Shown here piece after piece: positions 16,149 through 37,297 of a stretch of DNA of 64,000 nucleotides. Every line of letters begins with the position of its first letter. The first letter of the stretch is position 1. The stretch is from Candidatus Levyibacteriota bacterium (GTDB lineage Bacteria > Patescibacteriota > Microgenomatia > Levybacterales > UBA12049). The notes beneath the pieces are model-generated. The model ran no database searches, was not told the DNA's origin, and saw nothing but the letters and a program-made list of their open reading frames with translations. The stretch covers positions 469,171-533,170 of the forward strand of contig OY970292.1 of NCBI GenBank assembly GCA_963716145.1. The letters run 5' to 3'. A program made the position numbers and the translations under genes.

Positions 16149-17125
16149 GCTTTATTTGCCTTCTTTCCCTGAGCTTCGTAGAATCCTCCCGCAACTGTTA
16201 GCTCTGCCTTAATGGGTGGGTGCGGATCATAATTTAGAAGTTCAACCAGTTCAGGACGGAAACTATCAAGATCTTTGAATTTGCCAAGTTTGATCGTCGG
16301 GAATGGTTTTGGTTTTCTTTTCAATTGCTCCTTTACCTGGTCAATGTGATTTTCATAAATATGCACATCACCAAAAGTATGTACAAATTCCCCCGGTTTG
16401 TAACCCAAAATTTTGGCCAGAATAATTGTCAGAAGAGCATAGCTTGCTATATTAAATGGTACTCCTAGAAAAACATCAGCGCTTCTTTGGTATAGTTGCA
16501 AATTTAATCTATTATTCTTGATATTCACCTGATACATATTGTGGCAAATCGGAAAGTAAGACGTATCTTCCTTAGTTGCCATTGTGTATAGGTATTCAGG
16601 ATTCCAGGAATTTACAATCGTGTTGTGAGCAAAAGGATCATCCGTAAGTTCCTGAATAACCCATTTTAGCTGGTCAATGGTGCGCCCTGAGCGGGTGGGC
16701 CAGCAGCGCCACAATTCTCCATAAATTCTTGGCAAATTCCCCCACTCTTTGGCAAATTTATTGTCTTCTGCGATTTTCTGAATAAACTCCTCCTTTGTTA
16801 AAACTTGATTCTTACTTCTTAATTCTTGCTTCTTCGCAAAAATCTTGTACGGGTAATCATCCCAGATATGGACATTGTTATCGACCAGATATTTTATATT
16901 GGAGTTGCCAGACATGAACCAATAAAGCTCGTGAAGTACTCCCTTCCAGTAGACTTTTTTCGTAGTTAAAAGAGGAAAACCTTCTGATAGATCAAACCTA
17001 ATTTGACGACCAAAAACGCCGTAAGAACTTACTCCTGTCCCACGATCATAATTCTTGTCCCCGTTTTTGAGGATGTCCTTAAGAAGATCCAAATATTGGT
17101 GTTCGGGATGAATTGACTTCGTCAT
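16145..17125 (-). CDS. thyA: thymidylate synthase (ThyA), start at MTKSIHPEHQYLDL; carries a low-complexity insertion (AKKQELRSKNQV)
   Basis: FGRQIRFDLSEGFPLLTTKKV..GVLHELYWFMSGNSN..YL...VHIWD, catalytic ICHNMYQ, ...SADVFLGVPFNIASYALLT are all ThyA motifs. Confidence 0.9.
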   Translation of the reverse strand: MTKSIHPEHQYLDLLKDILKNGDKNYDRGTGVSSYGVFGRQIRFDLSEGFPLLTTKKVYWKGVLHELYWFMSGNSNIKYLVDNNVHIWDDYPYKIFAKKQELRSKNQVLTKEEFIQKIAEDNKFAKEWGNLPRIYGELWRCWPTRSGRTIDQLKWVIQELTDDPFAHNTIVNSWNPEYLYTMATKEDTSYFPICHNMYQVNIKNNRLNLQLYQRSADVFLGVPFNIASYALLTIILAKILGYKPGEFVHTFGDVHIYENHIDQVKEQLKRKPKPFPTIKLGKFKDLDSFRPELVELLNYDPHPPIKAELTVAGGFYEAQGKKANKA

Positions 17126-17225
17126 AATACGTACCAATACTACCAATAATACAGTGAGCAATCAAGAGTTATCTAATTTGACTTCTATTTATATAGATTA
17201 TATTATTACTATCAAAACATAATCT

Positions 17226-18137
17226 ATGTCTTCGGCAATTACTTTTAAAAACACAGGTTATAAAATCGGCAATAAAACTATTCTTGAAAATGTAAACTTA
17301 AATATCCCAAAAGGCAGCATAACCGGAATCCTTGGACCAAATGGCGCCGGCAAGACAACTCTTCTTTCACTCATCAACGGCCTTCGCAATCACACAACAG
17401 GCGAAGTAACAGTTCTCGGTGAAAAACTACCTCTTAGTTCCAGTCTCAGAAAACGGATTGGAGTAGTTCTTCAGGAAACAGCGCTTTATGAAGAATTAAC
17501 AACTTTTGAAAATCTGGAATTTTCAGCCAGTCTGTATGATGTCAAAAACGCGAAAGAAAGAATCAATAAGATTCTGGCTCTTCTTAAATTATCTGACCGC
17601 AAAGATCAAATTGTCAGCACTCTTTCGGGAGGACTTAAGCGCCGAGTTGCAATTGCCAGATCGCTGATTCATGATCCTGAGCTTTTGATAGTTGATGAGC
17701 CCACACTTGGAGTTGACGTCGAGGCGAGACATGCTATCTGGTCCCACCTGAGAGTTCTTAAATCAAAAGGCAGGACAATAGTTGTCGCGACAAATTATCT
17801 GGACGAAGCGCAGGCACTATGCGATACTGTCGCGGTGCTTAAAAAAGGCAAACTTGTAATAGTTGAAACGCCTGAAAAGCTAGTTTCTAAAACAGGAACC
17901 TGCATCGACATCCAATGCTCAATCCAAACGGGCAAAGAAGTATCAAGTGCCCTTAAAAAAACAAAAAGTATTGTCAGGATTGACCCGACTCCGAGCGGAT
18001 TATCAATATTTCTCAAAGGCTCAACAGTTCCGAAAGAGATTATGAAAACCCTTTTGTCCCAACCAAAAATTGAAGGGATTCTGACCCGCGCGCCGGACCT
18101 GGCCGAAGTGTTTAAAGCCCTAAAGGAAAAAGCATGA
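17226..18137 (+). CDS. ABC transporter ATP-binding protein
   Basis: Walker A GPNGAGKTTLLS, ABC signature LSGGLKRRVAIARSL, Walker B LLIVDEPTLGVD. Confidence 0.85.
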   Translation: MSSAITFKNTGYKIGNKTILENVNLNIPKGSITGILGPNGAGKTTLLSLINGLRNHTTGEVTVLGEKLPLSSSLRKRIGVVLQETALYEELTTFENLEFSASLYDVKNAKERINKILALLKLSDRKDQIVSTLSGGLKRRVAIARSLIHDPELLIVDEPTLGVDVEARHAIWSHLRVLKSKGRTIVVATNYLDEAQALCDTVAVLKKGKLVIVETPEKLVSKTGTCIDIQCSIQTGKEVSSALKKTKSIVRIDPTPSGLSIFLKGSTVPKEIMKTLLSQPKIEGILTRAPDLAEVFKALKEKA

Positions 18138-19237
18138 AAAGAGCAATAAATGTGATACTGAGCTCCGCTCGGGTAGAATTTATCAGACTCAAACGCTCCC
18201 CTCTTCTAGTATTTTTGACCATAACGCAGGCAATCACTTTCATGCTATTGGTCAATTTTTTCGGCATGACCGGAGCTTTTGCACCAACGGCTGTAGTTGA
18301 TTATGACAAGAGTGATTTTTCTAAAAGCTTTATTGAGACACTCAAAAACGCCCACCACTCATTTGCTATTCAGATGATGGAAAAAGATAGCGCGGTTGCA
18401 GAATTTAACAAAGGAAAAATTGTCGCGATTATCCAAATCCCCAAAGGTTTCTCGGCTGTTATCAAGTCCGGCCACAGCGTTGATATCAAAGTCGCTGTTA
18501 ACAATATTGATACCGATATGACAGCTGATATTGAGAGAGCTCTTCCGGCAGCTATTACCCAATTTGGCAACAAACATAAGTTTTCACTTATTCACGTCAG
18601 AGCGGTCGAACATGATCTGATTCCTCATGACACCGGATTTATTGAATATATGGTAATTAGCGCCTTTATTTTGAACGCCTTTATTATCAGCGGTATCCTT
18701 GCAGCTACTTCAGTTGCCCGTGAGTTTGAGGAGAGCACAATTAATCATCTTTTAATGGCACCTGTTAATACTATTTTTTCACTTCTCGGGCGTGTTCTGG
18801 TAACCGGCGGATTTAGCGCGATCTTAATTCTTCTGACTATGCCGGTTGTTTTGCGTCTTTACGGGATTACCCCGCTTGACCCGCTAACAATTGGGCTCGT
18901 AATTATCCTCGGGGTTATTACTTTTTCCATTCTCGCTGTTGCTCTTGGCGCGGCTGTTAAGAAAAGTTTTCCTGTTGTTTCTCTCATTTTTGGATTGTCT
19001 CTTCCTATTTTCATCAATAGCGGCTCGTATGAGCCGGAGCGGCTGGATGGAAATCTGATCTGGGCAACAGCTCATCTGAATCCTGTTTATTACTTGGTGG
19101 GAATAATGCAAAACGCTGTCTGGGGATTTAAAGTAACTCCTGAGCCGATTTGGATTTTATATGTAGCAACTTTTGGTTGGATGGTTCTTGGACTTTTTCT
19201 CAGCCGGTTTTTCCTTAAAAGGAGGCTTTCTGTATGA
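18134..19237 (+). CDS. ABC-2 type transporter permease
   Basis: 4-nt overlap with the ATPase gene. N-terminal TM, large periplasmic loop, then 5 C-terminal TM helices typical of ABC-2. Confidence 0.7.
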   Translation: MKRAINVILSSARVEFIRLKRSPLLVFLTITQAITFMLLVNFFGMTGAFAPTAVVDYDKSDFSKSFIETLKNAHHSFAIQMMEKDSAVAEFNKGKIVAIIQIPKGFSAVIKSGHSVDIKVAVNNIDTDMTADIERALPAAITQFGNKHKFSLIHVRAVEHDLIPHDTGFIEYMVISAFILNAFIISGILAATSVAREFEESTINHLLMAPVNTIFSLLGRVLVTGGFSAILILLTMPVVLRLYGITPLDPLTIGLVIILGVITFSILAVALGAAVKKSFPVVSLIFGLSLPIFINSGSYEPERLDGNLIWATAHLNPVYYLVGIMQNAVWGFKVTPEPIWILYVATFGWMVLGLFLSRFFLKRRLSV

Positions 19238-20484
19238 TTAGAGCGCTTTTTGCAATTGTGAAGCTAGATCTTTCGCTTTGGAGAAGAATGCCTTTTGCAA
19301 TTTTTGCAGCGCTTGTGCCGCCAATTGGCATGACCCTGGTTATCGTCATTCTCTCTCTAGCGGTTCTGCAGCAGCCAGTTGCTCTTGTTATTGAAGGAAA
19401 AGGACCGAATACCGAAAAAATGCAGAAACTGATCGAAGCAGACACAGACGCCTATATCCTGACGACCACTGATCAAAAAACAGCTCAAAAAATGCTTGAT
19501 AGTCTGCAAGTCGCTGCTGTCATCACAATTCCCAAAGACTTTGAAAAAAAAGCAGCAGAAGTCCCTATGGCATTAGCGCATATAAGCTTTGAGGGAAAAG
19601 TAAAAAGTGTCCCGGCAGAAATAGACTATACGCTTTTTAACGCAAACATTGATTTCTCTGACGATGTCAGACGCAGCGTTGACAGATCAGCTGCCAAATT
19701 TGACGCCCCTCATCTTGGTGGCGAAGACGAAGAGGGAGAAATAGAGGCTGAATCTGCTGTATTAGGACAACCGGCAGAAGTTGAAGATAAAGAGGAAATT
19801 GCGGAAGAGTTGCGGGCTATGAAAAGAAAAAATCCCTATAGAATAAATATAGAAAAATACAATCTGCGAGAAACAGATGTTGACTGGTTTAATTACCAAG
19901 TCATTCCTGTCCTCATCCTTCTTATCATCAACGTTTCGCTTATGGGAACCGCGCTCATTTGCGCAACCGACATCGAGCGCAAAACAGCGCGTTTCCTTGT
20001 TCTTTCCCCTCAGAGGTCATGGATTTTGGTCGCTGGCAGACTTCTGTCCGGAACAATCGCCTCAATTATAGTTCTTATACCATCCATTGCTATAGCCGTT
20101 TTGGCTGGCGTTATCAAGCCCCCACCCGGTCACTGGCCAGCGCTCGCTGCTATTTTCCTGGCAACAGCGGTCTGTGCGTCAGGAATTGGCGCTTTTCTGG
20201 GATCTGTTATGAAAGGCTCACGCTCAATTGCCATGAGCGCGTCAACCATAAGTTCCTATATGTTTTTCCTGGGAGGCGGATTTACAACAATTCCTTTCCT
20301 TCCCCACTGGCTTCAGGATATCAGTGCTTTCATTCCCTTCCGTTACGCGATTGATGGGATGCGCGAAGCACTTTTCTACGCAACACTTGATGAAATCCCC
20401 AAAAACCTGACAATTCTTTGCCTAACGGCGATACTTACAGTCCTCCTCGGCTCGTACTCAGTCCGAAAGGCGTGGAGTGATTAG
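19234..20484 (+). CDS. ABC-2 type transporter permease (second subunit)
   Basis: Translationally coupled (4-nt overlap). Same topology as the previous gene, with an acidic insert in the loop. Confidence 0.65.
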   Translation: MIRALFAIVKLDLSLWRRMPFAIFAALVPPIGMTLVIVILSLAVLQQPVALVIEGKGPNTEKMQKLIEADTDAYILTTTDQKTAQKMLDSLQVAAVITIPKDFEKKAAEVPMALAHISFEGKVKSVPAEIDYTLFNANIDFSDDVRRSVDRSAAKFDAPHLGGEDEEGEIEAESAVLGQPAEVEDKEEIAEELRAMKRKNPYRINIEKYNLRETDVDWFNYQVIPVLILLIINVSLMGTALICATDIERKTARFLVLSPQRSWILVAGRLLSGTIASIIVLIPSIAIAVLAGVIKPPPGHWPALAAIFLATAVCASGIGAFLGSVMKGSRSIAMSASTISSYMFFLGGGFTTIPFLPHWLQDISAFIPFRYAIDGMREALFYATLDEIPKNLTILCLTAILTVLLGSYSVRKAWSD

Positions 20485-20534
20485 AGCATAAATAACATTG
20501 ACATTCCAATTAGTAATTGAAATACTGAATTTAC

Positions 20535-21035
20535 ATGAACAAAGAGGAGTCTCCGCCTACGATAAATGAGACTCTTACCCCTTTACCTCAGGAGGCTAAG
20601 CTACAAAATAAATCGAAAAAATTTCCAAACAATCTTATTCTTATAATTATTGCTTTTGCTCTAAGCTACATAACAGTTTACATATTAGGAAGTGTGGCAC
20701 CTACCCAACCTTCTGGAATTGGACTAGGACTTGTTTATATTTTGGGGCCATCTTTATTTGGAATAATATCAATTACACTTTTTTACATAAAATACAGGCA
20801 CAATATGCCAACTGTTACAAATAAAGTAAAATGTCCAATAATTATTGAGGTTATTGGAATGGCAGCTGGGTATATTTTTGCATTTTTTACTCTGCCGGCA
20901 GTGCTTGATATATTGTTTTGGGATATTTTTAAAGAAATCGCTGGCGTCATTTTTGGTGTATTTGTACATTTCGTACTCTTAACTTATATTGGGTTTCTGC
21001 TAGCACGTCAAGTATATAAGTACATAAATTATTAG
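20535..21035 (+). CDS. hypothetical polytopic membrane protein (166 aa)
   Basis: Four predicted hydrophobic helices. No family recognised. Confidence 0.45.
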   Translation: MNKEESPPTINETLTPLPQEAKLQNKSKKFPNNLILIIIAFALSYITVYILGSVAPTQPSGIGLGLVYILGPSLFGIISITLFYIKYRHNMPTVTNKVKCPIIIEVIGMAAGYIFAFFTLPAVLDILFWDIFKEIAGVIFGVFVHFVLLTYIGFLLARQVYKYINY

Positions 21036-21050
21036 AATAATTCAGAGGCA

Positions 21051-21659
21051 CTAAACCTGCTTCTCTTTCTTCGTGGTAGTAACTCTTCCCCCTTGCCATT
21101 GGCCGCGGTACATATTACCTCCGCCTGAGACTTCTGAGAACTGTATGTGAACAATCCGCGCGCCGAGTTCGATAGTAACTGGAACCGGTCCTTCGTTTTT
21201 GAGACCAAAGTTCAATCCCCCACTATAGCCCGGCGGGACATTGCCTGTGCGGATGAATAAACCACTTCGATAAGTGGTAGAGCGAGGTGTAATACTTGCA
21301 GTTAGATTGTCGGGCATGTTAACTGATTCTATCGTCTTTATCAAAAAAAACTCTCCCGGCTTAATTACAATTTTTTGTTCTTTGTTCTTAGTTCTTGGAA
21401 AACCGTTCTCCGAAGAACTAAGATCTAAGACCTTTGAACCATTCTTAGCTCTTTGCTCTTTGTATTTCGCGATTAGCGAAACTTCGGCCGTGTGCCTTTC
21501 TGTGACTCCCAAGAAAGCTTTTCCTGAAATCTTGTAGACTTCCCCAAGCCGCAAGTCAAACCCCGCGCCTTCCGGATTGGTCAGTTCCCGCTCTGACAAA
21601 TTCTCAACAAGCTTTTTTGTTTTAACTAGCTTTAATAATTGCTTAGGTCCTAAAACCAT
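21051..21659 (-). CDS. dUTPase/dCTP deaminase superfamily protein (divergent Dcd-like, putative dUTP diphosphatase)
   Basis: PEGAGFDLRLGEVYKI and IKPGEFFLIKTIESVNMPDNLTASITPRSTTYRSGLFI match the Dcd/Dut trimeric beta-fold motifs. Much more divergent than the canonical dcd at 23749. Confidence 0.6.
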   Translation of the reverse strand: MVLGPKQLLKLVKTKKLVENLSERELTNPEGAGFDLRLGEVYKISGKAFLGVTERHTAEVSLIAKYKEQRAKNGSKVLDLSSSENGFPRTKNKEQKIVIKPGEFFLIKTIESVNMPDNLTASITPRSTTYRSGLFIRTGNVPPGYSGGLNFGLKNEGPVPVTIELGARIVHIQFSEVSGGGNMYRGQWQGGRVTTTKKEKQV

Positions 21660-21760
21660 AAATTAATAATCCAATACTACCAATAACCCACTAAGCAAAT
21701 CAATAGTGAATTTAAGACTTAATTAAAGACTTAATTTCAAATGTAAATAATCAGAAATGT

Positions 21761-21790
21761 TGACAATGGTTATTTGCTGTGATGTAATAT
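21761..21790 (+). promoter_or_regulatory. putative sigma70 promoter of the pilin gene (TTGACA -35, 18-nt spacer, TAATAT -10)
   Basis: TTGACA at 21761-21766; TAATAT at 21785-21790. Immediately followed by the (TA)n tract. Confidence 0.4.
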
Positions 21791-21808
21791 ATATATATAT
21801 ATATATAT
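21786..21808. repeat. (TA)11 dinucleotide simple-sequence repeat in the pilin promoter/5' UTR
   Basis: taatatatatatatatatatatatt, read directly from the sequence. Confidence 0.9.
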
Positions 21809-21841
21809 TTGGAATTTATGGAGAAATTTTTAAGGAGAAAA

Positions 21842-22264
21842 ATGCAGCATTTTACCCAAAAAGGCTTCACTCTTGTTGAGCTTCTGATTGTTATAGCAGT
21901 TCTTGGAGTACTTGCAGTTGGCCTAATCTTGGCAATTAATCCAGGAGATAAAATAAAAGCTGCAAATGATTCAAATGTATTAACCGATATTAGCACACTT
22001 GCAAAAGCATCTAGCTCATATGCAATATCCCATAACGGAAACTACCCTACAACGCTTGCGGCACTAACAACTTCTGGCGAACTAAAAGCTTTACCCACTG
22101 CTCCTTCGGGTTATACAGCCTACGCTTTGACAGTCAGTGGTGCCAATATCTACCTAACCGGTGAACTTAAATCCAAAAAATATTCTGCGGCTCCAAGAGC
22201 ACTATATAATACATCAAACGGGAAACTATGCCAGACAACAGCAACGACAACTGTCTGTCCATAG
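21842..22264 (+). CDS. type IV pilin / prepilin-type N-terminal cleavage-methylation domain protein (start at MQHFTQKGF)
   Basis: Class III signal peptide: QKGFTLVELLIVIAVLGVLAVGLILAI (G|FTLVELL cleavage motif). GGAG RBS 8 nt upstream of the ATG at 21842. Confidence 0.8.
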   Translation: MQHFTQKGFTLVELLIVIAVLGVLAVGLILAINPGDKIKAANDSNVLTDISTLAKASSSYAISHNGNYPTTLAALTTSGELKALPTAPSGYTAYALTVSGANIYLTGELKSKKYSAAPRALYNTSNGKLCQTTATTTVCP

Positions 22265-22310
22265 ATTTATCTATCATCTTGACGGCTTTGATTTTTAATG
22301 GAATAATAAA

Positions 22311-22973
22311 ATGGTGAAAGTAAAAAAACAAACAACCTACAATTCTTTAATAATTTTAATAATTTTTTTGCTTATTGTTGTAGCAATATTAAGTTTTACC
22401 ATAGTCAATATCTCAAGGCAGATTGATGTACCCGATAGCAAAACAGATACTCAATCTTTTACCAAAACTCCGCCAGCCAGTAGCTTATCCACTAAGGCAA
22501 GCAATTTAGTCGAGTTTACTCATCCTATTGTTAAATATAGCCTAGATTTCCCTTCTGTCTGGAAGCCATTAATTTACAAGTCTATCGCCGGACAAGCAGT
22601 TGTTCCTTATGATGATCTTGTTATCTTCAGCCCTGATTACCAGCAGGAAACAATCCCGGATACGACAACACAGATCCATACTGGCGCCTCAATCCTCGTT
22701 CGCGTCACAGAAACCCATTATGATAATATTGAGAAAAAGTTTGCTGAAAACGCAATAGCCCAAAAAATTGCCAGAAACGTAACTAAAATAAATATTAATG
22801 GAACAACTGCAATCCAATACGATTACTCTACAAATGGCGAAAATGCAACCAACGTTACTTTTACCAAAAATGGATTATGGTATCTGGTAAAATTCCAATA
22901 CAAAGATGAAGAAACAAAAAGACAATATTTAAGTGTGTTTCAAGATTTACTAAACTCTCTCAAGCTTAAATAA
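22311..22973 (+). CDS. hypothetical membrane-anchored extracytoplasmic protein
   Basis: N-terminal TM (LIILIIFLLIVVAILSF). Extracellular domain with SLDFPSVW and a C-terminal WYLVKFQY motif. Paralogous architecture to 13589 and 42652. Confidence 0.5.
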   Translation: MVKVKKQTTYNSLIILIIFLLIVVAILSFTIVNISRQIDVPDSKTDTQSFTKTPPASSLSTKASNLVEFTHPIVKYSLDFPSVWKPLIYKSIAGQAVVPYDDLVIFSPDYQQETIPDTTTQIHTGASILVRVTETHYDNIEKKFAENAIAQKIARNVTKININGTTAIQYDYSTNGENATNVTFTKNGLWYLVKFQYKDEETKRQYLSVFQDLLNSLKLK

Positions 22974-23654
22974 TTAGACACCGGATAGTTTTGAAATTAT
23001 ATCTCCGGTTACTTCTTCAACAGGACGTGCTCCGTTTATTATTTTAAACTCCTCAGGAAATTCTTTGAGAAGCCAATCATATCCCTCTTTTGCTTTCAGG
23101 ATTTTTTGCTTCTCTTCATAAATCTCCTTCTCGTGCGGTTTTTTAGACAGTCTGTCCATGGCCCTCAAGACAGGAATATCAAGGTAAATTGTGATATCAG
23201 GCGCAATAAATTGGTGATACATAGATAGTATGCTTTGTGAGACCAGAATATATTTAGCAGTATTGTCGTCAAAATCCTGCTCCAGATCCAAAACTCCATA
23301 AGGAACGGCCGACCAGAAGCAACGGTCTGAAATCACAATCTTTCCGGCTTTAAGCGATGGTTCAATCAATTCCGCGTGATGCATTCCGCGGTCTGCTGAA
23401 AATAAATATTGTATCGCGACAGAGGGCACTTTCGTCTTGCCGTTGAGAATTTTTTGAATCAGCTCTCCGATCAAACCTTCATCTTTTCGGGGTTCACGCG
23501 TGCGGACAACTTCCTTCCCCTGCTTTTTGAAATACTCATAAAGCTTTTCAATCTGCGTGGTCTTACCTGATCCGTCAATTCCCTCAAGTACAATATACTG
23601 TCCCGGGTAGGGATTGCGTCTGAAATCAATGTCTAGCTCTAGGTGATACTTCAT
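22974..23654 (-). CDS. tmk: thymidylate kinase
   Basis: P-loop YIVLEGIDGSGKTTQIEKL, DRCFWSAVPYG (DRY-like), LID region. Confidence 0.85.
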   Translation of the reverse strand: MKYHLELDIDFRRNPYPGQYIVLEGIDGSGKTTQIEKLYEYFKKQGKEVVRTREPRKDEGLIGELIQKILNGKTKVPSVAIQYLFSADRGMHHAELIEPSLKAGKIVISDRCFWSAVPYGVLDLEQDFDDNTAKYILVSQSILSMYHQFIAPDITIYLDIPVLRAMDRLSKKPHEKEIYEEKQKILKAKEGYDWLLKEFPEEFKIINGARPVEEVTGDIISKLSGV

Positions 23655-23748
23655 GTTTTAAATTTCAAATAACTACCAATTTCAAATATCCAATTTCCAA
23701 TAATTTACATTTAGCATTTGAAATTTGACATTGGAAATTTGAAATTCA

Positions 23749-24318
23749 TTATTTCTCCTCATGTATCCTGCTCTCTTCCGGTCCTTTTTGAAATTTATAT
23801 TTTGCATCTTTTTTGCTGGTGTATGGAGTTATTGAGGGACTTGAGAGTTCTTCAAATGTCATCGCGCAGATTCTCATCCCAACAGTTAACTTTATTGCCA
23901 TCCGCCCGAGATTGCCAAGTTCAAGAACAGGATTTCCATCCCAACCTGGATCAAAAATAGATGCTGTTGAGTGCACAACTAAACCCAGGCGGCCAAGTGA
24001 AGAACGTCCTTCAAGACGCCCCATCAAATCCGCCGGAATCTTAACCGACTCCAAAGTAACCGCCAAAACAAATTCCCCTGGTTGCATAACAAAACTACCG
24101 TCTTTTCCAGCCTTTATGACTTTGGTAATTTCATTGCTGTAATCTTTTTTGGAAGGATCGATATACGCGTGCTGGCTATGATCAAATACCCGGAAATTAT
24201 TTCCAAGTCTCAAATCAATTGAACAGGATCCGAGTTGAGTGGATAAATCCGGAGTTGGCTTAATAACAATACGCTTGCTCTGTAGAGCTTTTTTAATATC
24301 CTGATCCGATAAAACCAT
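23749..24318 (-). CDS. dcd: dCTP deaminase
   Basis: LSDQDIKKAL...IKPTPDLSTQLGSCSIDLRLG ... GEFVLAVTLESVKIPADLMGRLEGRSSLGRLGLVVHSTA is collinear with canonical Dcd. Confidence 0.85.
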   Translation of the reverse strand: MVLSDQDIKKALQSKRIVIKPTPDLSTQLGSCSIDLRLGNNFRVFDHSQHAYIDPSKKDYSNEITKVIKAGKDGSFVMQPGEFVLAVTLESVKIPADLMGRLEGRSSLGRLGLVVHSTASIFDPGWDGNPVLELGNLGRMAIKLTVGMRICAMTFEELSSPSITPYTSKKDAKYKFQKGPEESRIHEEK

Positions 24319-24381
24319 AACGAAAGTTTAGCATGTCGGATCCCTTGACACAACTAGGTTTCTTATCTACGATTAATGTAA

Positions 24382-25607
24382 ATGAAAAATGGTAAGAAAC
24401 ATCTTTTTCTGGGATTTTTTTTGGCACTTCTTTTAGTTAGTGCCCTGGCCATTGCAAATATTAAACAGCCCCAGGAGACCCGCACGCACGCAGCCGCCGG
24501 AACAACTACCTTAAAGCTCACTCCGGCATCAGCATCCAAACAAGTCGGTGACACAATTTCACTCGATATTATGGTTGACCCCGGTGAGAATCTCGTATCG
24601 TTTGTAAAATTCCAAGTTACATTTGATCCAACCAAATTAGCACTGGTAACAGCAGATCCTTTTACTTTAAATACCACAGATTTCCCTGTAAAAGTTGAGG
24701 GTCCGGTAACGAATGCCGAAAGCATTGGTGAATCCGTTTCCATAGGCGCTGACCCTACAAAAGTGATTCAGCAAGTTACCAAAGTAGGAACTCTCCATTT
24801 CAAAGCAGTTGGCGGGACAAATAACACCCCCACGATGATTGCATTTAGCAATATTAGCCAAGCGCTTTCCGCGGGAACCAATGATGCGGCAAGAATTAAT
24901 GTACTCTCCGGCACAACGCCAGCGGCTATTACAATTGGAGGAACTTCCAATCTTTCCCCGACCGTAGTTGTTGATCCCTGCCCTGCTTTTTGCCCTTCCA
25001 TAACCCCGGGCCAACAGGTACAGGGTCGACAGCCACTTTTACAATTTTACTGCATGGGGTAGGTGCTGCGGGAGATAACCCAAATCCAAGCGGCAACAGT
25101 CTGAGTAATAAAGCGCCCCTGCATCCGCAAAGAAATCTTACTGTTTGGTTTTTCAATACACGCAATCAACTTGTTGCAAGCATCTCAGGAGCTATAAATT
25201 TTGACGCGTCCAGCGGCGCATTTAAGGGCAGTATTGATTTGGGACCCGATTTAAGAGATGGGAACTATAGTGTAAAGGTAAAAACAGATCGGTATCTGCG
25301 AAAGTTAGTTCCGGGCGCTCAAAAAATAGCATTGCTTAAAGACAATTCTATTACCCAAGTAGCGCTTGTTGCCGGAGACACCAATGGTGATAATTTGGTT
25401 AACATACTTGACTACAATGCATTTATCGACTGCGGCTATGGCGCTTTAAATCCGCTACCGCTTGATGATGCAAATTCTATTTTTAATAAGCGAGTCTGCC
25501 AAGTTCATACCCCTGCTATAAATATTGATGTTAATGACAATGGGATTATTGACAGCACCGACTATAATCTTTTTCTCCGTGAACTCTCGGTCCAAAGCGG
25601 GGATTAA
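24382..25607 (+). pseudogene. cohesin-like / dockerin surface protein paralog 1, split by a 1-nt frameshift near 25010
   Basis: ORF 24382-25062 holds the signal peptide plus cohesin-like domain (GDTISLDIMVDPGENLVSFVKFQVTFDPTKLALV). ORF 24990-25607 holds the conserved C-terminal module with dockerin (GDTNGDNLVNILDYN...DVNDNGIIDSTDYNLFLRE). Adding one C in ccgggcc(c)aacagg restores ...ITPGPTGTGSTATFTILLHGVG.., as in paralog 3. Confidence 0.6.
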
Positions 25608-25616
25608 ACTTAACCC

Positions 25617-28217
25617 TTGACAGGGCTCTCCTTTATTCACTATGCTAAATATGGATTTATGTCTTTTTTCAAAAAGAATCCTCTTCTTAAGTTGGGGCTT
25701 TTAGCCCTTGTTTTGGTTGGTTTGCCTGCCGCAGTGTTCTTGTCCCAAAAACAAGCCGAGAACAGATCCCGTGCCAGCGCATCAACCACGCTCTACTTTA
25801 CCCCCAGCACAACTACTTCAAGTCCTTTGCAGAAAAATGTCGGCGAGACTGTTGCTTTTGATGTAATGATAAACCCTGGAAACAATCTTGCCGCCTTGGT
25901 AAAGCTTGAAATTGATTGGGACGGCGCAAAGCTTCAACCAGTAGGAAACGCTTTTGTTCAAAACGTTACTAGCATGCCCATAATCGTAGAGGGACCGATA
26001 CTGACCAACGGAAAACTTCTTATTACACTATCAAATGGTTCAGATCCGACCAAGGCACTGGGCCAAATTTCCAGAATCGGAACAATTACCTTTACCGCCG
26101 CCGCCCCAACAGGTTCAACGCCAACAGTTCTATCTTTTGGCTCAAGAGCGCAGGTATTATCAGTATCCTCAACTAACACGTATAACGAAAATGTTTTATC
26201 AACTACAACACCTGCAAGCATTATTATTCCAGGAAGTAACGTCACGCCAACAATCTCTCCTACCCCGCCTACTTCATGCGCCAGTAGCCCGAGTGAAACC
26301 ATGCTCATTATTGATAAGTCCGGAAGCATGAGTGTTGCGGCAGATGTTAATAAAATTACTCAAGCAAAAGCGGCTGCAAAAAGTTTTGTAGATATAATTG
26401 CCCGGGATACTCAAAACACCATTGGTTTGGTTTCGTATGAGAATACAGCAACAGTTAATAGTCCTTTAACCACTGACTATTCGTCTGTTAAAAGTCAAAT
26501 TGATACATTAACCGCAATCGGAAGCACATGTACGGAATGCGGGATAATCAAGGCAAATCAGGAAATCGCGAGAAGCACTTCTTCAAAGAAAAAAGTGGTT
26601 GTTCTTTTGACGGATGGCATAGCCAATTTCGTTGAAGGAAACACCAACCAGGTTGCTCCATCTATTGCAGAGCAAAGAGCGATTGCGGCTGCTGTAGCAG
26701 GACATAATGCCGACGGAACTGTATTTTACACCATTGGCCTTGGAAGTCAGATAAACGCGGCCTTCCTTCAGCAGATTGCCGAATCAACAGGGGGGAAATA
26801 TTACGCAAGTCCGACCGGTGATCAACTAAATACAATCTATAATCAGATTTCAGAAATCTCGGGCAAAGGCTCAGTCAGTGGATCTGTTTTTAATGATGCT
26901 AATAATAACGCAGCTTTTGATTCAAACGAAGCAAAGCTCTCAGGTTGGACTTTACAGCTCCTGGCAGCAGGATCTACAACTCCTCAAACATTCACAAGCG
27001 ATGCAAATGGATTTAACATCACAGGACTTTGTAATGGCACCTATACCTTAAAAGAAATTGTTCAGAACGGCTGGAGACAGACCTTACCGGCTGATCCAAA
27101 TGGATACCAAATTATAATTAACAATGGCGGCGCTATAACAAATAAGAATTTTGGCAATAAGCAGGGAAACACCTGTGCTGATGGAATAGACAACAACGGC
27201 AATAACTTTATAGATATAGCAGATCCTATTTGCCACACTGATGGAAATAAAAATAATCCCGACTCTTATGATCCGAATCTGCCTGAGCGTAACGGTAACA
27301 CCTGCGCCGATGGGATAGACAACAACGGCAATAACCTAATTGATGGCCTGGATCCAATCTGTCACACAGATGGTAACCCTAACAATCCCAATTCATATGA
27401 CCCCAACCGGCCTGAGACAGGAAACACCTGTGCTGATGGAATTGATAATAATGGGAACAACTTCATAGACATTGCAGACCCCATATGTCATACCGATGGT
27501 AACCGCAATAACCCTAACTCCTATGATCCAAATCTTCCAGAGCGCAATGGGAATACATGCTCAGACGGAATAGATAACAATAATAATAATCTAATAGATG
27601 GCTTGGATCCTATCTGTCACACAGGCGGGATTATCACCAATCCATATAATCCTGATCTTCCGGAAAATGGCGGAACCGGAACAAATTTGAATTTGACAGT
27701 ACTTCTTCACGGCATAGGCTCAGCCGGTGACAACGCTACAACTCTCAACAGCGAGAGCAACAAAAACCCACTTCATGCAACAAGAAGTGCACAAGTATCG
27801 ATCTACAATACCGCAAATCAATTGATATCAAGCGCGTCAGGGGTAATAAGATATGCAAGCGCGTCAGGAGACTTCAGGGGAACAGTTGTGACGAGAACTC
27901 CCTTAGCTGCCGGTAATTACAATATCCGCGTGCGGAGCAGTCAGCATCTTACACGTCTCATACCGGGAATACAAACGATTGTGAGTGCGGGAACCAACCA
28001 ACTTCCGCCTGCTAGCCTTGTGGCTGGGGATGTGAACGATGACAACAAGTTAAATATTCTTGATTACAATCTTCTAATTGGCTGCAACAGTATTGAGCCT
28101 GATCCATTATGCACAGGCATTCTCCGAATCCAGACCGACCTTGATGATAACGGGATAATTGATATTGAAGATTACAACTTATTCCTCAGAGAGCTTTCCA
28201 GTCAGCCGGGAGAGTAA
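25617..28217 (+). CDS. large surface adhesin-like protein: signal peptide, cohesin-like domain, vWA domain, SdrD-B/prealbumin-like domain, 4x Cys-bracketed Asp/Asn-rich repeats, C-terminal dockerin
   Basis: Cohesin-like NVGETVAFDVMINPGNNLAALVKLEIDWDGAKLQPV. vWA MIDAS LIIDKSGSMS..LLTDGIANF..TIGLG. Four near-identical 43-aa repeats GNTCADGIDNNGNNFIDIADPICHTDGNKNNPDSYDPNLPERN. Dockerin GDVNDDNKLNILDYNLLIG...DLDDNGIIDIEDYNLFLRE. Confidence 0.7.
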   Translation: MTGLSFIHYAKYGFMSFFKKNPLLKLGLLALVLVGLPAAVFLSQKQAENRSRASASTTLYFTPSTTTSSPLQKNVGETVAFDVMINPGNNLAALVKLEIDWDGAKLQPVGNAFVQNVTSMPIIVEGPILTNGKLLITLSNGSDPTKALGQISRIGTITFTAAAPTGSTPTVLSFGSRAQVLSVSSTNTYNENVLSTTTPASIIIPGSNVTPTISPTPPTSCASSPSETMLIIDKSGSMSVAADVNKITQAKAAAKSFVDIIARDTQNTIGLVSYENTATVNSPLTTDYSSVKSQIDTLTAIGSTCTECGIIKANQEIARSTSSKKKVVVLLTDGIANFVEGNTNQVAPSIAEQRAIAAAVAGHNADGTVFYTIGLGSQINAAFLQQIAESTGGKYYASPTGDQLNTIYNQISEISGKGSVSGSVFNDANNNAAFDSNEAKLSGWTLQLLAAGSTTPQTFTSDANGFNITGLCNGTYTLKEIVQNGWRQTLPADPNGYQIIINNGGAITNKNFGNKQGNTCADGIDNNGNNFIDIADPICHTDGNKNNPDSYDPNLPERNGNTCADGIDNNGNNLIDGLDPICHTDGNPNNPNSYDPNRPETGNTCADGIDNNGNNFIDIADPICHTDGNRNNPNSYDPNLPERNGNTCSDGIDNNNNNLIDGLDPICHTGGIITNPYNPDLPENGGTGTNLNLTVLLHGIGSAGDNATTLNSESNKNPLHATRSAQVSIYNTANQLISSASGVIRYASASGDFRGTVVTRTPLAAGNYNIRVRSSQHLTRLIPGIQTIVSAGTNQLPPASLVAGDVNDDNKLNILDYNLLIGCNSIEPDPLCTGILRIQTDLDDNGIIDIEDYNLFLRELSSQPGE

Positions 28218-28278
28218 TTTTGTAAAATTCCAACTTGACAAAAGATTGCATTTCCATAGATACTTATAAAGTATAACG

Positions 28279-30243
28279 ATGAGCAATACAAGAAATAGAT
28301 TATTACTACTGGGCGGCATGCTTGTTCTTTTGGTGATTGGAATTCCAGCTATAATTTTTCTCACTCAGCAAAGACAAGAAACGCGCTCCCGTGCTTCTGC
28401 ATCAACTACACTCTACCTTACTCCATCATCTTCTGCATCAGCTCCCATAAACAAAACTATTGGCCAGACAGTTGCTTTTGATGTTATGCTAAACCCCGGC
28501 AACAATTTGCCGGCATTTGTTAAATTGGATCTGCTCTACGATAGCACCAAATACGAGCCCGTTCAACCAGCCTCTTTTGTAGTAAATACCGACGCGTTTC
28601 CTCAAACATTTGAAGGCCCAATAATCAATAATGGTGAGTATCTCATCTCTCTTTCTGTAGGCGCAGATCCTACCAAAGCAATACGCGCCGTTACCAGAGT
28701 TGGAACCCTAACCTTTACAACCAAGACTCCAACCTCAACTCCCACGCAAATCTCCTTTGGACCGAGATCTCAAGTCCTATCAGTTGCGTCAACCAATCAA
28801 GCAAGCGAAAACGTTTTATCCACTACCACACCGGGCTTTCTGACAATTTCGGGAATCGCCACCCCTACCCCCATACGTAAAGGCGGAGATGGTGGTAACG
28901 CGGGCAAAGGCGGAGGCGCTTGTGGTAGTCTGGGCAATAATGGTAGCATTGGCAGCGCTTCAACCGGAGGAACCGGGGGCACAGGTGGAACTGGATGTAG
29001 CGGAGGAACCTTAACTGGCAACACTGGTGGCATTGGAGGAGTTGGAGGTCTTGGAAGTAGCAGCGGTCCTGGAAATCCTGGCCAGAATGGCAGACCAGGA
29101 CAGGGAACTGGCGCGGGCGGTGGTGGCGGCGCGGGCGGTGGTGGGGCACCCGGTCAGCCCGGCGGACGCGGCGGCGATGGAGGAACTGGATGCAATGGCG
29201 TTCCCGGACAACCTGGATTGCCGGGAGAAGCTGCGCCAAATGCAAGCACAGGCGGAAAAGGCGGCCGTGGTGGTGAAGGAGGCACAGCTTGTGTTACCAC
29301 ACCAACACCTACGCCAACTTCAGGACCAGTAAACACCACTCTTACTTGTTCTTCAACCTCTGTTGTTCTAAGCGATCTTATGCGGTCTATTGATGTCACA
29401 TTGAAAAATACTTCAGGAGTAGGAATAGCTGGCAAAACAGTAAACTGGACGTCAAGTTCTGCTGTATCATTCTCCCCTCCCACCTCGCAAACTAACTCCG
29501 CCGGTGTAGGCATAACCAGTGCGGGAGTTACTAATTTAAGTACTCCCTCGTTTACTGGAATCATAACTGCGCGCTTTCCCGGTGACGCTACATTAGCCGC
29601 TTCGTCTTGCACGATACCTGTTAGCTATACAGCGCCGACTGCCACCCCTACTCCAACCAGAATTCCAACCCCAACCCCTACTTCCGCGCCTAACTCGACC
29701 AGGCTATCTCTCACAGTATTTATGCACGGAATTGGTAACAGCGGAGATAATGCAAATCCAACCAGCTTTAGCTTAAGCAATAAAACTCCACTGCATACAA
29801 CACGGGCGGTAACTGTCCAGATTTTCAATACGCTCAATCAGCTTACTTTATCAAAAACCAGCAATATTGTTTATGCCAGCAGCAGCGGTAGCTTTAGAGG
29901 AACAGTGGACCTGGCAAATCTACTCGCACTAAGCGGTTCTTATACCGTAAAGATTCAGTCCCCAACTCATTTAAGACGTCTTGTTCCTGGAATACAAACC
30001 CTAACAGTTGGTCAAACTCATAATCTAGAAGCAGTATCCCTAATAGCAGGAGATGTAAACTCAGATAACGCACTTAATATCCTTGATTATAACTTGATTA
30101 CTGGCTGCTACAGCGATATCGCGCCTGCTGTATCGTGCACTGCGGACAACAAGTTACTTACCGACCTAAATGACGATGGAGCTGTAAACCAATTTGATTA
30201 CAATCTTTTCCTGCGCGAAATAACAGTCCAGAATGGACAGTAA
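28279..30243 (+). CDS. surface protein paralog 3: signal peptide, cohesin-like domain, Gly-rich/collagen-like region, bacterial Ig-like domain, C-terminal dockerin
   Basis: Same N- and C-terminal modules as 25617 (TTLYLTPSSSASAPINKTIGQTVAFDVMLNPGNNLPAFVKLDLLYD ... GDVNSDNALNILDYNLITG..DLNDDGAVNQFDYNLFLRE). Central about 140-aa GGxGG / G-x-P tract. Confidence 0.7.
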   Translation: MSNTRNRLLLLGGMLVLLVIGIPAIIFLTQQRQETRSRASASTTLYLTPSSSASAPINKTIGQTVAFDVMLNPGNNLPAFVKLDLLYDSTKYEPVQPASFVVNTDAFPQTFEGPIINNGEYLISLSVGADPTKAIRAVTRVGTLTFTTKTPTSTPTQISFGPRSQVLSVASTNQASENVLSTTTPGFLTISGIATPTPIRKGGDGGNAGKGGGACGSLGNNGSIGSASTGGTGGTGGTGCSGGTLTGNTGGIGGVGGLGSSSGPGNPGQNGRPGQGTGAGGGGGAGGGGAPGQPGGRGGDGGTGCNGVPGQPGLPGEAAPNASTGGKGGRGGEGGTACVTTPTPTPTSGPVNTTLTCSSTSVVLSDLMRSIDVTLKNTSGVGIAGKTVNWTSSSAVSFSPPTSQTNSAGVGITSAGVTNLSTPSFTGIITARFPGDATLAASSCTIPVSYTAPTATPTPTRIPTPTPTSAPNSTRLSLTVFMHGIGNSGDNANPTSFSLSNKTPLHTTRAVTVQIFNTLNQLTLSKTSNIVYASSSGSFRGTVDLANLLALSGSYTVKIQSPTHLRRLVPGIQTLTVGQTHNLEAVSLIAGDVNSDNALNILDYNLITGCYSDIAPAVSCTADNKLLTDLNDDGAVNQFDYNLFLREITVQNGQ

Positions 30244-30272
30244 AACCTGCCCGAATTTGCTACAATAGTTGC

Positions 30273-30875
30273 ATGTCAAAAAAGCTGATTGCTATTCTGT
30301 TTATTTTTATCGCCGCAACATCTGCTCTCATATTTCTCAAGTTTATCTACCTGAAAGCCTCCCCTCTTCAATCAATACATGATATAGGATTGCAACCTAC
30401 ACCTATTCCTGAAGCCTCAATTTCCCTCTTTCCAGGCCTTTTGGTTGCAACCGCCAGCCAAAGCGCTCAAATAAATGTGGCAGTAAATTCCAATCTTGCT
30501 GATAACAGCTCTAAGCTAATTCAATTTGAGCTAAGCTACGAACCTACTGCCTTATATTATGTAAAGGTAGTCCCGGGAGATTACTTAATAAATCCGGAAG
30601 TCGTTTTGAATAATATTGATATCAGAACCGGCCGGATATCCTATGCAATTAAAGGAGACTCTTCAAATCCAAATTCAAATATAGTAGCTGTAGTTAATTT
30701 TAATATTGCAAACTACGGCATTCATAAGGAAACGGAGATTTCTTTTCTTCCCAAAACATTGATCAGGCAAGGTGAGGAAAAAATTAACTTAAAAGCAGCA
30801 AGTGGAGCAAAAATTATTCTAAAACCTTTGTTTTTCATTCCACCGGCAAGTCCCTCAGCAGCTGTAGTTAGATGA
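30273..30875 (+). CDS. small membrane-anchored cohesin-like domain protein
   Basis: N-terminal TM. The domain AQINVAVNSNLADNSSKLIQFELSYEPTALYYV...ISYAIKG resembles the cohesin-like fold of the upstream paralogs (..V.V.....L....F.L.YDP..L..V). Confidence 0.4.
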   Translation: MSKKLIAILFIFIAATSALIFLKFIYLKASPLQSIHDIGLQPTPIPEASISLFPGLLVATASQSAQINVAVNSNLADNSSKLIQFELSYEPTALYYVKVVPGDYLINPEVVLNNIDIRTGRISYAIKGDSSNPNSNIVAVVNFNIANYGIHKETEISFLPKTLIRQGEEKINLKAASGAKIILKPLFFIPPASPSAAVVR

Positions 30876-32189: not shown

Positions 32190-32231
32190 ATTTTTATTGT
32201 ATCGTATTGGAAGCTTTTGTCAACAACAATG

Positions 32232-32304
32232 TGGGTGCTAATAGAATCGAACTATTGACCTCTTTCTTATCAGGAAAGCGTTCTAGCCACTGAACTAAGC
32301 ACCC
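32232..32304 (-). tRNA. tRNA-Ile (anticodon GAU)
   Basis: Reverse complement folds as GGGTGCT-TA-GTTC-AGTGGCTA-GAAC-G-CTTTC-CTGATAA-GAAAG-AGGTC-AATAG-TTCGATT-CTATT-AGCACCC-A. 7-bp acceptor stem, TTCGATT T-loop, anticodon loop CU-GAU-AA. Confidence 0.85.
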
Positions 32305-33151: not shown

Positions 33152-33269
33152 ATTTTCCTTTCTTTGCCTAATCTTATAGATTAAACTATTTGGTTTAAAA
33201 CTTTATTAAAGATTTGTAATAATTTAATATTATTTCTGCCGTTTTAGTCAAAATCCTACGGATTTTGAG

Positions 33270-33342
33270 AGGCGCGAAAGGGAGTCGAACCCTTGCATGG
33301 AAGTTTTGCAAACTCCTGCGTTAACCACTTCGCCACCGCGCC
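33270..33342 (-). tRNA. tRNA-Cys (anticodon GCA)
   Basis: Reverse complement is GGCGCGG-TG-GCGA-AGTGGTTA-ACGC-A-GGAGT-TTGCAAA-ACTTC-CATGC-AAGGG-TTCGACT-CCCTT-TCGCGCC-T. U73 discriminator typical of tRNA-Cys. Confidence 0.85.
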
Positions 33343-34404: not shown

Positions 34405-35875
<1,471 letters not shown>

Positions 35876-36179
35876 AAAAAAAATTATAGAAGTTTTAAGG
35901 CTTCTAAAATCCTGTGTCAGGTTATTCTTTTTTATCCAAACTTGCGTCGGGATAGAGGAAAAAACCTGATAAAAATTCCTACCACATCTTGATTACCAAA
36001 CACCTTTTTCCCTTACAAAGATAGGTTGCTTGGTTCCTCCCTAGATTAAGGAGGTTTTAAAGTGTACTTAAATTATTAAAGTGCTCTTCGGTTCGCTTTG
36101 CTCTCTCAGAGTAAACTGCTCAGTCTAATGAAGTATGTAAAATAAAGACTTGTGCTGAGCTTGCCGAAGTACAAAAAAT

Positions 36180-36424: not shown

Positions 36425-37297
36425 TTATTTACTCTTCCGTCTGAGGAACATTCCCCCAATTGCACTAGGTATCAGTCCAAACAAAGCTAAGCTTTCTGGT
36501 CCTGTATCAGGTGTTTTTGTTGCTTTGGTTGGTGGATAGACAGGCAATCCTCCTTTAGTTGTTGGTGGGTTAACTGTAGCGGGATTGGTTGGGAATCCAC
36601 CTTTAGTTGTAGTTGGATTACCAGGATTTGTTGGATTGCTTGGATTACCAGGCTGTGTTGGGTTGCTAGGGTTGCTAGGATTGCTTGGCTGATCCGGATT
36701 GTTAGGGTTACCAGGGTTTGTAGGAGTAGGTGTTGGAACACCTTTCTCAATACAAACTGATGCATTATCTTGTCCTGTTTTGTTGTCTACTGTAATAATA
36801 GATTGGTTAACAACACAGACTATGTTCTGGTCACTTGGGAGCTTATCATTTCCTCTTACTTTAACTTTAACGAAAAAGTCGCGTGATTCATCCTTTGCCA
36901 GGGAGTCAATCTTGATTGTTAAGGTTTTTGAATTCTGATCAAATGTTCCACCCATACCTTCAACAAAGTCTACAAAATCAGGCAGGATATCTTTAACTAC
37001 AACATTTTTAAGGGTATCACCTGTTGTATTTCTGACAGTGATCTTAAAGATAACTGTTTCACCACTTCTGTACTTTGCGTCAGATACTCCAAGGTTATCA
37101 ACAAAAGCACCGCTTTGAGGATTCTTTACAGTTTTATTGATCTCAAACTGAGGAGTCTTAACACATGATTCTCCACCACCATAGATAGGCTGGCATTGAT
37201 TTGTACCATAGTTAGTAGAAGCTGCAAAAGAGACTCCTGCTGAAAGAGCAAGAAGAGTAAGAGCTGTTACTGAGACTTTAAGTATTGATTTATTCAT
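36425..37297 (-). CDS. secreted DUF11 (conserved repeat domain) protein with Pro/Asn-rich linker and LPXTG-like C-terminal sorting signal
   Basis: Signal peptide. A DUF11-like beta domain (VKDILPDFVDFVEGMGGTFDQNSKTLTIKIDSLAKDESRDFFVKVKV). NPGNPNNPDQPSNPSNP repeats. C-terminal KTPDTGPESLALFGLIPSAIGGMFLRRKSK (motif, TM helix, basic tail). Confidence 0.6.
   Translation of the reverse strand: MNKSILKVSVTALTLLALSAGVSFAASTNYGTNQCQPIYGGGESCVKTPQFEINKTVKNPQSGAFVDNLGVSDAKYRSGETVIFKITVRNTTGDTLKNVVVKDILPDFVDFVEGMGGTFDQNSKTLTIKIDSLAKDESRDFFVKVKVRGNDKLPSDQNIVCVVNQSIITVDNKTGQDNASVCIEKGVPTPTPTNPGNPNNPDQPSNPSNPSNPTQPGNPSNPTNPGNPTTTKGGFPTNPATVNPPTTKGGLPVYPPTKATKTPDTGPESLALFGLIPSAIGGMFLRRKSK

Follow-up and report, generated by a model that had tools for sequence, protein, structure and literature searches.

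Cohesin–dockerin systems offer the closest described parallels to the locus analyzed here. A class of monovalent adaptor scaffoldins, in which one cohesin and one dockerin share a polypeptide, has been defined (PMC11557425), and the ScaC-type adaptors of Ruminococcus flavefaciens are secreted proteins that pair a single cohesin with a single C-terminal dockerin and whose genes cluster with other scaffoldin genes. In the amylosome of R. bromii, Amy4 carries a cohesin together with a dockerin that binds this same cohesin, and Sca2 supplies a sortase-anchored, ScaE-like cohesin (PMC4611034). In the anchoring complexes CipA–SdbA of C. thermocellum (2b59, 3kcp) and ScaA–ScaB of A. cellulolyticus (4u3s, 4wi0), a sandwich domain, the X-module, is fused to a two-loop dockerin to give an XDoc unit. 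Non-cellulosomal cohesins from Archaeoglobus fulgidus (2xdh) and from a C. perfringens GH33 protein (2vo8) are modules that stand alone on an enzyme or an individual protein. Among surface structures of another kind, sortase-assembled Gram-positive pili bear von Willebrand factor A (VWA) and CnaB-type tip adhesins such as RrgA and GBS104. Here we describe a 64,000-nucleotide stretch of a Candidatus Levyibacteriota genome (assembly GCA_963716145.1, contig OY970292.1; hereafter the window), one that belongs to the candidate phyla radiation (CPR), in which four plus-strand genes, g1 to g4, are packed within positions 24382–30875 with intergenic gaps of 9, 61 and 29 nt. We propose, at a probability of about 0.6, that this locus is a conserved CPR cassette encoding a Ca-dependent, non-covalent adhesin system that would display proteins at the surface or form chains.

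The first three genes are paralogues. An initial annotation of the window, made from the letters and a list of open reading frames (ORFs), had described three tandem plus-strand genes with common N- and C-terminal modules and had compared the former to cohesins, and both claims hold. The coordinates were confirmed, and pairwise identities reach 40–57% over about 190 aa for the N-modules and 48–54% over 178 aa for the C-modules. When all six frames of the window were searched with hidden Markov models (HMMs) built from homologues of each module, g1–g3 and nothing else matched, at E values of 1e-56 to 1e-83, so the paralogy is real and far beyond chance. The AlphaFold2 (AF2) model of the g3 N-module has a predicted local distance difference test score (pLDDT) of 89.2, and the 50 PDB structures that Foldseek ranks highest for it are cohesins without exception, spanning types I, II and III. 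The best of these is 6kgc_A (E 9.6e-10), target-normalised template modelling scores across the top 50 run from 0.67 to 0.78, and the non-cellulosomal cohesins 2xdh and 2vo8 take ranks 21 and 25. The database search found 27 homologues, 8 of the 28 family sequences match Pfam Cohesin (PF00963, gathering threshold 24.1 bits) individually with E ≤ 0.01, the strongest at 4.3e-8, and the trimmed family profile retrieves nine PDB chains, every one a cohesin (E 0.006–0.07). Because family-level Pfam matches, PDB profile matches and the predicted fold all point to it, the N-module is identified as a cohesin. The signals for cohesin type are split, with sequence profiles favoring type II (ScaB) and fold matches favoring type I. 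The family also has an invariant Ala in an A-x-A-like motif about 12 residues past the hydrophobic core of the leader.

Most database homologues of the N-module (P0004–P0027, e.g. L001:10001-10882) are cohesin-only proteins of about 300 aa that consist of a leader, the cohesin, a Pro/Thr linker, the motif LPPTGPGE and a C-terminal hydrophobic helix without a basic tail. In one genome, such an LPPTG-tailed cohesin gene stands alone beside groES/groEL. This ending resembles a sorting signal, but the NCBIfam LPXTG models did not recognize the tails of these cohesin-only homologues, and ScaE-like sortase anchoring may be considered for them as a motif-level lead only.

The C-terminal module had been annotated as a single unit of about 180 aa ending in a dockerin. 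It is indeed common to g1–g3 and does end in a dockerin, but it comprises two domains. In the AF2 model (pLDDT 92.9; predicted template modelling score, pTM, 0.87), an Ig-like beta-sandwich (residues 1–117) is directly fused to a dockerin of about 65 aa composed of a loop-helix (126–134), a helix (147–152) and a second loop-helix (162–173), and the high pTM is that of a unit rigid across both domains, as in the XDoc units of CipA and ScaA. The Ca-binding geometry claimed for the dockerin is present, as both 12-residue loops carry D1, N/D3, D/N5, N/D9 and D12 in g1, g2 and g3, and the pattern recurs in both segments of 121 of the 139 family dockerins that could be parsed by regular expression. 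A dockerin-only profile retrieves 21 PDB chains, all of them dockerins (best E 8.8e-7), and 45 of the 74 representatives of the family match Pfam Dockerin_1 (PF00404, gathering threshold 22.9 bits) with E ≤ 1e-4, the strongest at 2.4e-12; single-sequence scores are given in Table 1. Profiles and model together thus identify the end of the module as a dockerin with two canonical Ca-binding loops. When the profile spans the whole C-module, its five best PDB matches are chains of an X-module with a type II dockerin, from CipA and ScaA (2b59_B at 2.8e-7, then 3kcp_A, 5g5d_B, 4wi0_B and 4u3s_B, up to 4.5e-4), and the alignments continue into the sandwich for some 40 residues. Ordinary type I dockerins, by comparison, score only 0.007–0.4. 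Homology of the sandwich to the X-module is suggested by these matches, without amounting to proof; we therefore refer to it as X-like and to the whole unit as X-Doc. The initial annotation had missed both this XDoc-like unit and the conservation of the cassette across many CPR genomes.

The family departs from the CipA and ScaA units in several ways: an invariant Cys pair flanks the linker between the two dockerin segments, position 6 of loop 1 is Asn rather than Gly, and the linker occurs in two lengths, short (s) and long-insert (L). Hierarchical clustering by identity leaves 136 of 139 dockerins in one cluster, so what separates L from s is the linker insert and not overall divergence. The sandwich has a highly conserved 24-residue loop of its own (LHGIGxxGDNxNP...SNKNPLH), which could be a ligand site. 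It is conceivable that the cohesin- and dockerin-like folds serve other roles altogether, for instance with the sandwich binding glycans or host proteins and the EF-hand-like segment conferring Ca-dependent stability, and that their co-occurrence is architectural only; the existence of stand-alone X-Doc proteins would fit such roles as well. Nevertheless, in dozens of genomes the cohesin and dockerin modules are strictly associated, both within single proteins and between neighboring genes, and the best-conserved part of the family is the residues that follow the Ca loops (L/I-D-Y-N; D-Y-N-L-F-L-R-E), the same ones that make up the helices touching the cohesin in solved complexes. We accordingly regard this explanation as very improbable.

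The fourth gene had been described as encoding a cohesin-like protein, and this reading is borne out. The g4 protein scores 28.3 bits against Pfam Cohesin, above the gathering threshold, and the profile of its family retrieves cohesins from the PDB with a best E of 2.1e-8 and nearly the full domain aligned. The HMM of the N-module does not detect g4 in the six-frame search of the window, and the profile matches identify it as a second, divergent cohesin. In related loci, 35 g4-like proteins share a common layout: the start MSKK, a hydrophobic helix of about 20 residues, a variable Pro/Thr linker, a cohesin domain of about 140 residues and a short tail. Because this family lacks a conserved A-x-A after the helix, unlike the N-module family, we infer that g4 would be retained in the membrane, with g1–g3 cleaved and released. 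Neither SLH domains nor LPXTG motifs were found in the g4 family, LPXTG is absent from all of g1–g4, and no sortase gene was present among the approximately 40 window ORFs scanned.

The X-Doc family is large. At E ≤ 1e-30, an exhaustive HMMER search recovered at least 1,160 representatives of 50%-identity clusters, in which the X-Doc unit almost always sits at the extreme C-terminus. A scan of GTDB species genomes yielded 175 relatives and 73 loci, mostly in metagenome-assembled genomes (MAGs) of Levybacteria or Patescibacteria, and local HMM annotation of these loci identified 67 ORFs that combine cohesin and X-Doc (Coh-X-Doc), 73 that have X-Doc but no N-module and 37 of the g4-like kind. 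Two or more X-Doc genes occur in 42 of the 73 loci, and a g4-like gene lies directly downstream of an X-Doc gene in 31. A recurring order emerges. A cargo-less Coh-X-Doc protein of about 410 aa with an L-type dockerin comes first and is followed by VWA+SdrD_B proteins, which may or may not include a cohesin; another cargo-less Coh-X-Doc protein, of about 420 aa and with an s-type dockerin, comes next, and the g4-like cohesin gene stands last. In 28 of 32 cases no X-Doc gene precedes the L-type gene, and the gene upstream of the g4-like gene bears an s-type dockerin in 30 of 31. The window matches this order, with g1 as the L-type cargo-less unit. Many MAGs annotated by third parties that carry the CPR-specific cassette and a CPR-like TopA go under titles such as Gammaproteobacteria, Lysobacterales, Xanthomonadales, Acidiferrales, Methylomirabilota and others (loci L005, L007, L009, L011 and L013–L016 among others; P0213, P0227, P0302), and these taxonomic titles are evidently wrong or placeholders.

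The gene associations bear on how the parts would pair. In 8 of 35 loci, the g4-like protein is the only cohesin beside the X-Doc genes, and this association, together with the s-type dockerin almost invariably encoded upstream, favors g4 as the partner of s-type dockerins. The same loci would also suit display without chains, in which each X-Doc protein docks singly on g4 or on an LPPTG-tailed cohesin, and the N-terminal cohesins of g1–g3 either capture only small cargo-less proteins of signal and X-Doc or are vestigial. Such an arrangement is further compatible with the absence of the N-terminal cohesin from 11 of the 31 genes upstream of g4-like genes, with the stand-alone signal, linker and X-Doc proteins, and with the separate genes for LPPTG-tailed cohesins of about 300 aa. 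Yet 48 of the 67 Coh-X-Doc ORFs are cargo-less, with only a 7–60-residue linker between cohesin and X-like domain, which makes this the commonest architecture and argues that the Coh+X-Doc pair is itself the functional unit. The purpose of such a protein is not obvious unless its cohesin docks something further, and its position in the cassette is conserved. Single docking is consequently unlikely in our judgment.

At the opposite extreme, the cassette might build a non-covalent pilus-like fibre, with g4 as the base, cargo-less Coh-X-Doc proteins as the shaft and the VWA adhesin, with its metal ion-dependent adhesion site (MIDAS), at or near the tip. Its bonds would be Ca-dependent and head-to-tail in a defined order, L and s dockerins matching distinct cohesin classes. 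The resemblance to sortase pili lies in the gene content, since one cluster encodes a VWA/MIDAS protein with prealbumin- or CnaB-like domains (SdrD_B and SpaA matches), small repeat-unit proteins and a base protein. However, the locus has no sortase, pilin motif or LPXTG, and joining would be non-covalent rather than by isopeptide bonds, so that the likeness is one of functional analogy only. We consider an ordered fibre doubtful. If it proved true, ultra-small CPR cells would hold a host cell or substrate by a functional counterpart of sortase pili made from cellulosome parts.

The regions between cohesin and X-Doc differ among the three paralogues. The initial annotation gave them as none in g1, VWA, SdrD_B-like and four Cys-bracketed repeats in g2, and collagen-like with Ig-like in g3. 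The first two descriptions stand, as does the Gly-rich nature of the third, but "collagen-like" proved loose and the Ig-like domain falls below threshold. As a family claim, the collagen-like label was rejected, given that g3 has no Pfam Collagen match and its longest G-X-Y run is 13 triplets. In g2, counted from the ATG at 25659, the MIDAS motif lies at residues 219 (DKSGS) and 318 (TDG), and the DNA of the Cys repeats has a period of 129 repeated 3.6 times at 27165–27624.

A census of cargo was taken over 94 cargo-bearing relatives, comprising 20 hand-picked long proteins and 74 representatives from the best-scoring matches. Among the 74 representatives, VWA was counted 14 times, SdrD_B 13, CBM_4_9 12 and CarboxypepD_reg 7, and CARDB, Big, lectin-type modules and CBM96 occur further among the census proteins. 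Stand-alone proteins of signal, linker and X-Doc without cargo also exist (P0030, P0033 and similar), and in L055:9329-11449 the X-Doc unit is internal and followed by a BD-FAE esterase. These data bear on the possibility that the locus belongs to a true polysaccharide-degrading, cellulosome-like system, whose cohesins recruit dockerin-bearing glycoside hydrolases (GHs) encoded elsewhere. Bell et al. read a Microgenomates MAG in this way, reporting expressed cohesin/dockerin, GH and polysaccharide lyase genes in Cand. Shapirobacterales (PMC9123182), and the carbohydrate-binding modules CBM_4_9 and CBM96 would be in keeping with it, as would the isolated occurrences of GH99, a pectate-lyase-like domain and BD-FAE esterase. 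Nonetheless, catalytic cargo is rare: the 94 proteins include two BD-FAE esterases and one each of GH99, a pectate-lyase-like domain and a phosphoesterase, and no GH5/9/48-type cellulase is among the families listed for them. The commonest cargo is instead VWA+SdrD_B, an adhesin combination. No multi-cohesin scaffoldin was found in the window or in the 73 related loci, where every cohesin ORF is monovalent, and no GH among the roughly 40 window ORFs scanned or in the locus proteins. As cargo consists mostly of binding modules, with few enzymes and no multi-cohesin scaffoldin, the earlier statement that this is not a cellulosome is supported, and a degradative system appears distinctly improbable.

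Our preferred interpretation, the surface-display or chain-forming adhesin system, can be stated as a mechanism by analogy with the solved XDoc–cohesin anchoring complexes and with Amy4/Sca2. We infer export, leader cleavage, each cohesin–dockerin pairing and the role in attachment. The g1–g3 proteins would be exported adaptors of the monovalent type, each with a leader bearing the conserved A-x-A, a cohesin, optional cargo and X-Doc. Held in the membrane by its N-terminal helix, g4 would display its divergent cohesin as the socket nearest the cell, receiving dockerins of the short type. In a Ca-dependent manner, g2, g3 and an intact g1 may insert their X-Doc ends into g4 or into each other's N-terminal cohesins, and the proteins thus docked would offer their own N-terminal cohesins for additional docking. 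Binding modules, above all VWA/MIDAS, could thereby be carried outward on short chains held together non-covalently, or on a small network, and the displayed modules may attach the cell to a surface or a partner cell.

Compared with the known systems, g2, g3 and repaired g1 each have exactly one cohesin and one dockerin, as do 67 ORFs in related loci, and they thus resemble the ScaC-type adaptors. The differences are that a multi-cohesin primary scaffoldin is absent from the loci covered here, an X-like sandwich precedes the dockerin, the cargo, when present, is an adhesin module, paralogous adaptors and a small cohesin stand in a fixed order, and the host is a CPR bacterium rather than a Firmicute. 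In the vocabulary of PMC11557425, g4 is predicted to be a non-SLH anchoring scaffoldin; the anchor in this system would be a transmembrane-helix protein, unlike the SLH protein of the CipA/ScaA system. The amylosome shares the presence of both modules in one protein, which could thereby multimerise, and a non-cellulolytic use, and it has a single-cohesin anchor bound to the cell, as g4 is predicted to be. Amy4, however, carries a GH13 amylase where the cargo here is absent or an adhesin, and the self- or cross-binding demonstrated for Amy4 is putative here. In contrast to the isolated modules of 2xdh and 2vo8, the present cohesins belong to an ordered multi-gene Coh-X-Doc cassette.

Several observations weigh against the proposed system. 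At the level of single sequences, the g1 N-module scores 21.7 bits against Pfam Cohesin, under the cut-off, and those of g2 and g3 do not match the model at E ≤ 1. The sandwich alone ranks ScaA XDoc chains first, but weakly (E 0.058–0.076 over 31 residues). A Foldseek search of the C-module against the PDB returned no dockerin or XDoc structure (best E 1.9e-3); the matches were generic Ig or prealbumin sandwiches and T-cell receptor chains, which are uninformative for or against a dockerin. The dockerin helix that follows each Ca loop hardly varies in sequence from one paralogue to another, which fits promiscuous binding better than a strictly ordered chain. The putative connector g1 is frameshifted in this genome, so that a chain would lack it unless the frameshift is an assembly error. 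Finally, if the predicted leader cleavage fails, every protein would be membrane-tethered and the geometry would change.

With regard to the gene models, all four ORFs of the initial annotation are present, and its treatment of 24382–25607 as one frameshifted gene is corroborated by the closest related locus, where an unbroken orthologue of 406 aa (L003:6749-7966) aligns to both halves of g1 in different frames (65% identity for the first half, 78% for the second). The alignment identifies g1 as one gene broken by a single frameshift, either a pseudogene or an assembly error. Programmed frameshifting or conserved recoding was also considered and rejected, as this closest orthologue is a single intact ORF. 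The start of g2 had been placed at a TTG at 25617; alignment with the paralogues and a promoter-like box at this position indicate that it is probably the ATG at 25659. Boxes of the form TTGACA-N17/18-TAnnnT end 8–14 nt upstream of the ATGs of g1, g2 and g3, a placement that suggests that each gene has its own promoter and that the leaders are very short or missing. In scans of the region for promoters and terminators, total match counts did not exceed those of shuffled controls. The features are compiled in Table 1.

Table 1. Positions of locus features within the window (position 1 is the first nucleotide of the 64,000)
Feature	Position	Strand	Description or basis
Promoter-like box, g1	24345-24373	+	TTGACA-N17-TACGAT; ends 8 nt before g1 ATG
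g1	24382-25607	+	cargo-less cohesin-X-dockerin, ~408 aa if intact; ORFs 24382-25062 and 24990-25607
g1 cohesin (CohN)	24493-24942	+	family HMM E 1.9e-58
g1 frame-switch zone	24981-25008	+	Pro/Thr linker; overlap of tblastn high-scoring pairs and three-frame translation
g1 X-like beta-sandwich	25032-25361	+	domain annotation
g1 dockerin, long-insert (L) subtype	25365-25604	+	Pfam Dockerin_1 18.6 bits, below cut-off
Promoter-like box, g2	25617-25646	+	consensus match only
g2	25659-28217	+	cohesin-VWA-SdrD_B-4 acidic Cys repeats-X-dockerin, 852 aa from ATG 25659
g2 cohesin	25767-26234	+	family HMM E 2e-56
g2 VWA, intact MIDAS motif (DKSGS ... TDG)	26304-26846	+	VWA 59.2 bits
g2 SdrD_B / prealbumin-like domain	26880-27086	+	32.9 bits, cut-off 29.7
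g2 four 43-aa acidic double-disulfide repeats	27162-27680	+	NCBIfam NF033662 60.8 bits, 4 stretches
g2 X-like beta-sandwich	27681-28013	+	AF2 model and domain annotation
g2 dockerin, short (s) subtype	28017-28214	+	AF2 model, dockerin profile, Ca-loop pattern; no Dockerin_1 match reported
Promoter-like box, g3	28235-28264	+	consensus match only
g3	28279-30243	+	cohesin-Gly-rich region-Ig-like-X-dockerin, 654 aa
g3 cohesin (module modelled by AF2)	28387-28854	+	AF2, Foldseek, family HMM
g3 Gly-rich low-complexity region	28864-29313	+	43% Gly
g3 weak Big_1-like Ig domain	29389-29583	+	22.9 bits, below cut-off 34.9
g3 X-like beta-sandwich	29698-30036	+	domain annotation
g3 dockerin, short subtype	30040-30240	+	Dockerin_1 23.5 bits, cut-off 22.9
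g4	30273-30875	+	N-terminal hydrophobic helix, Pro-rich linker, divergent cohesin (~30474-30782)

The remainder of the window carries housekeeping genes and some further genes of interest. Relatives that bear a name fall in Levybacteria/Levyibacteriota, Microgenomates and Patescibacteria. A cluster for thymidylate and deoxynucleoside triphosphate metabolism spans 14309–24318, with SHMT (14309–15391), thyA (16145–17161), dCTP-deaminase-like paralogues (21051–21659 and 23749–24318) and a thymidylate-kinase-like gene (22974–23654), all on the minus strand, and an ABC-2 transporter (17226–20484, plus strand) is interleaved in it. At 21809–22973 on the plus strand, 1.4–2.5 kb upstream of the locus, a gene resembling type IV pilins (N_methyl motif, 33 bits) lies next to one for an uncharacterized membrane protein. 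A second, small VWA protein (294 aa, 58 bits), unrelated in architecture to g2, is encoded at 11663–13595 (plus strand) with an overlapping 360-aa ORF that has no Pfam match. A 747-aa S8 subtilase with a fervidolysin-type prodomain (45938–48181, minus strand), which adjoins topA, and a DUF11 repeat protein (36425–37297, minus strand) may be further surface or secreted proteins. The window also contains a complete 16S rRNA gene (34405–35881, minus strand) and no 23S or 5S gene, so the rRNA genes are unlinked. Downstream of the 16S gene are tRNA-Cys(GCA) at 33269–33342 and tRNA-Ile(GAT) at 32231–32304, both on the minus strand, with small ORFs between.

The literature searches turned up cohesin/dockerin genes of CPR bacteria mentioned in passing (PMC9123182, PMC10633639), among them an essential dockerin protein listed for a Saccharibacterium (PMC10633639), and no account of the ordered cassette, of its X-Doc family or of the adhesin cargo. 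The present analysis defines a large protein family and a conserved ordered cassette in Levybacteria-type genomes. It also urges caution, in that cohesin and dockerin matches in CPR MAGs should not be taken as evidence of cellulosomes. Furthermore, the new divergent cohesin–dockerin set, with its disulfide-bracketed linker and two subtypes, is a possible source of orthogonal assembly parts. To our knowledge, the means by which CPR or Patescibacteria attach to partners or surfaces are largely unknown outside a few cultivated Saccharibacteria. By turning the modular protein glue of highest affinity known from bacteria to the display of VWA/MIDAS and lectin-type modules, the cassette would provide a concrete and testable candidate attachment apparatus for a large uncultivated lineage.

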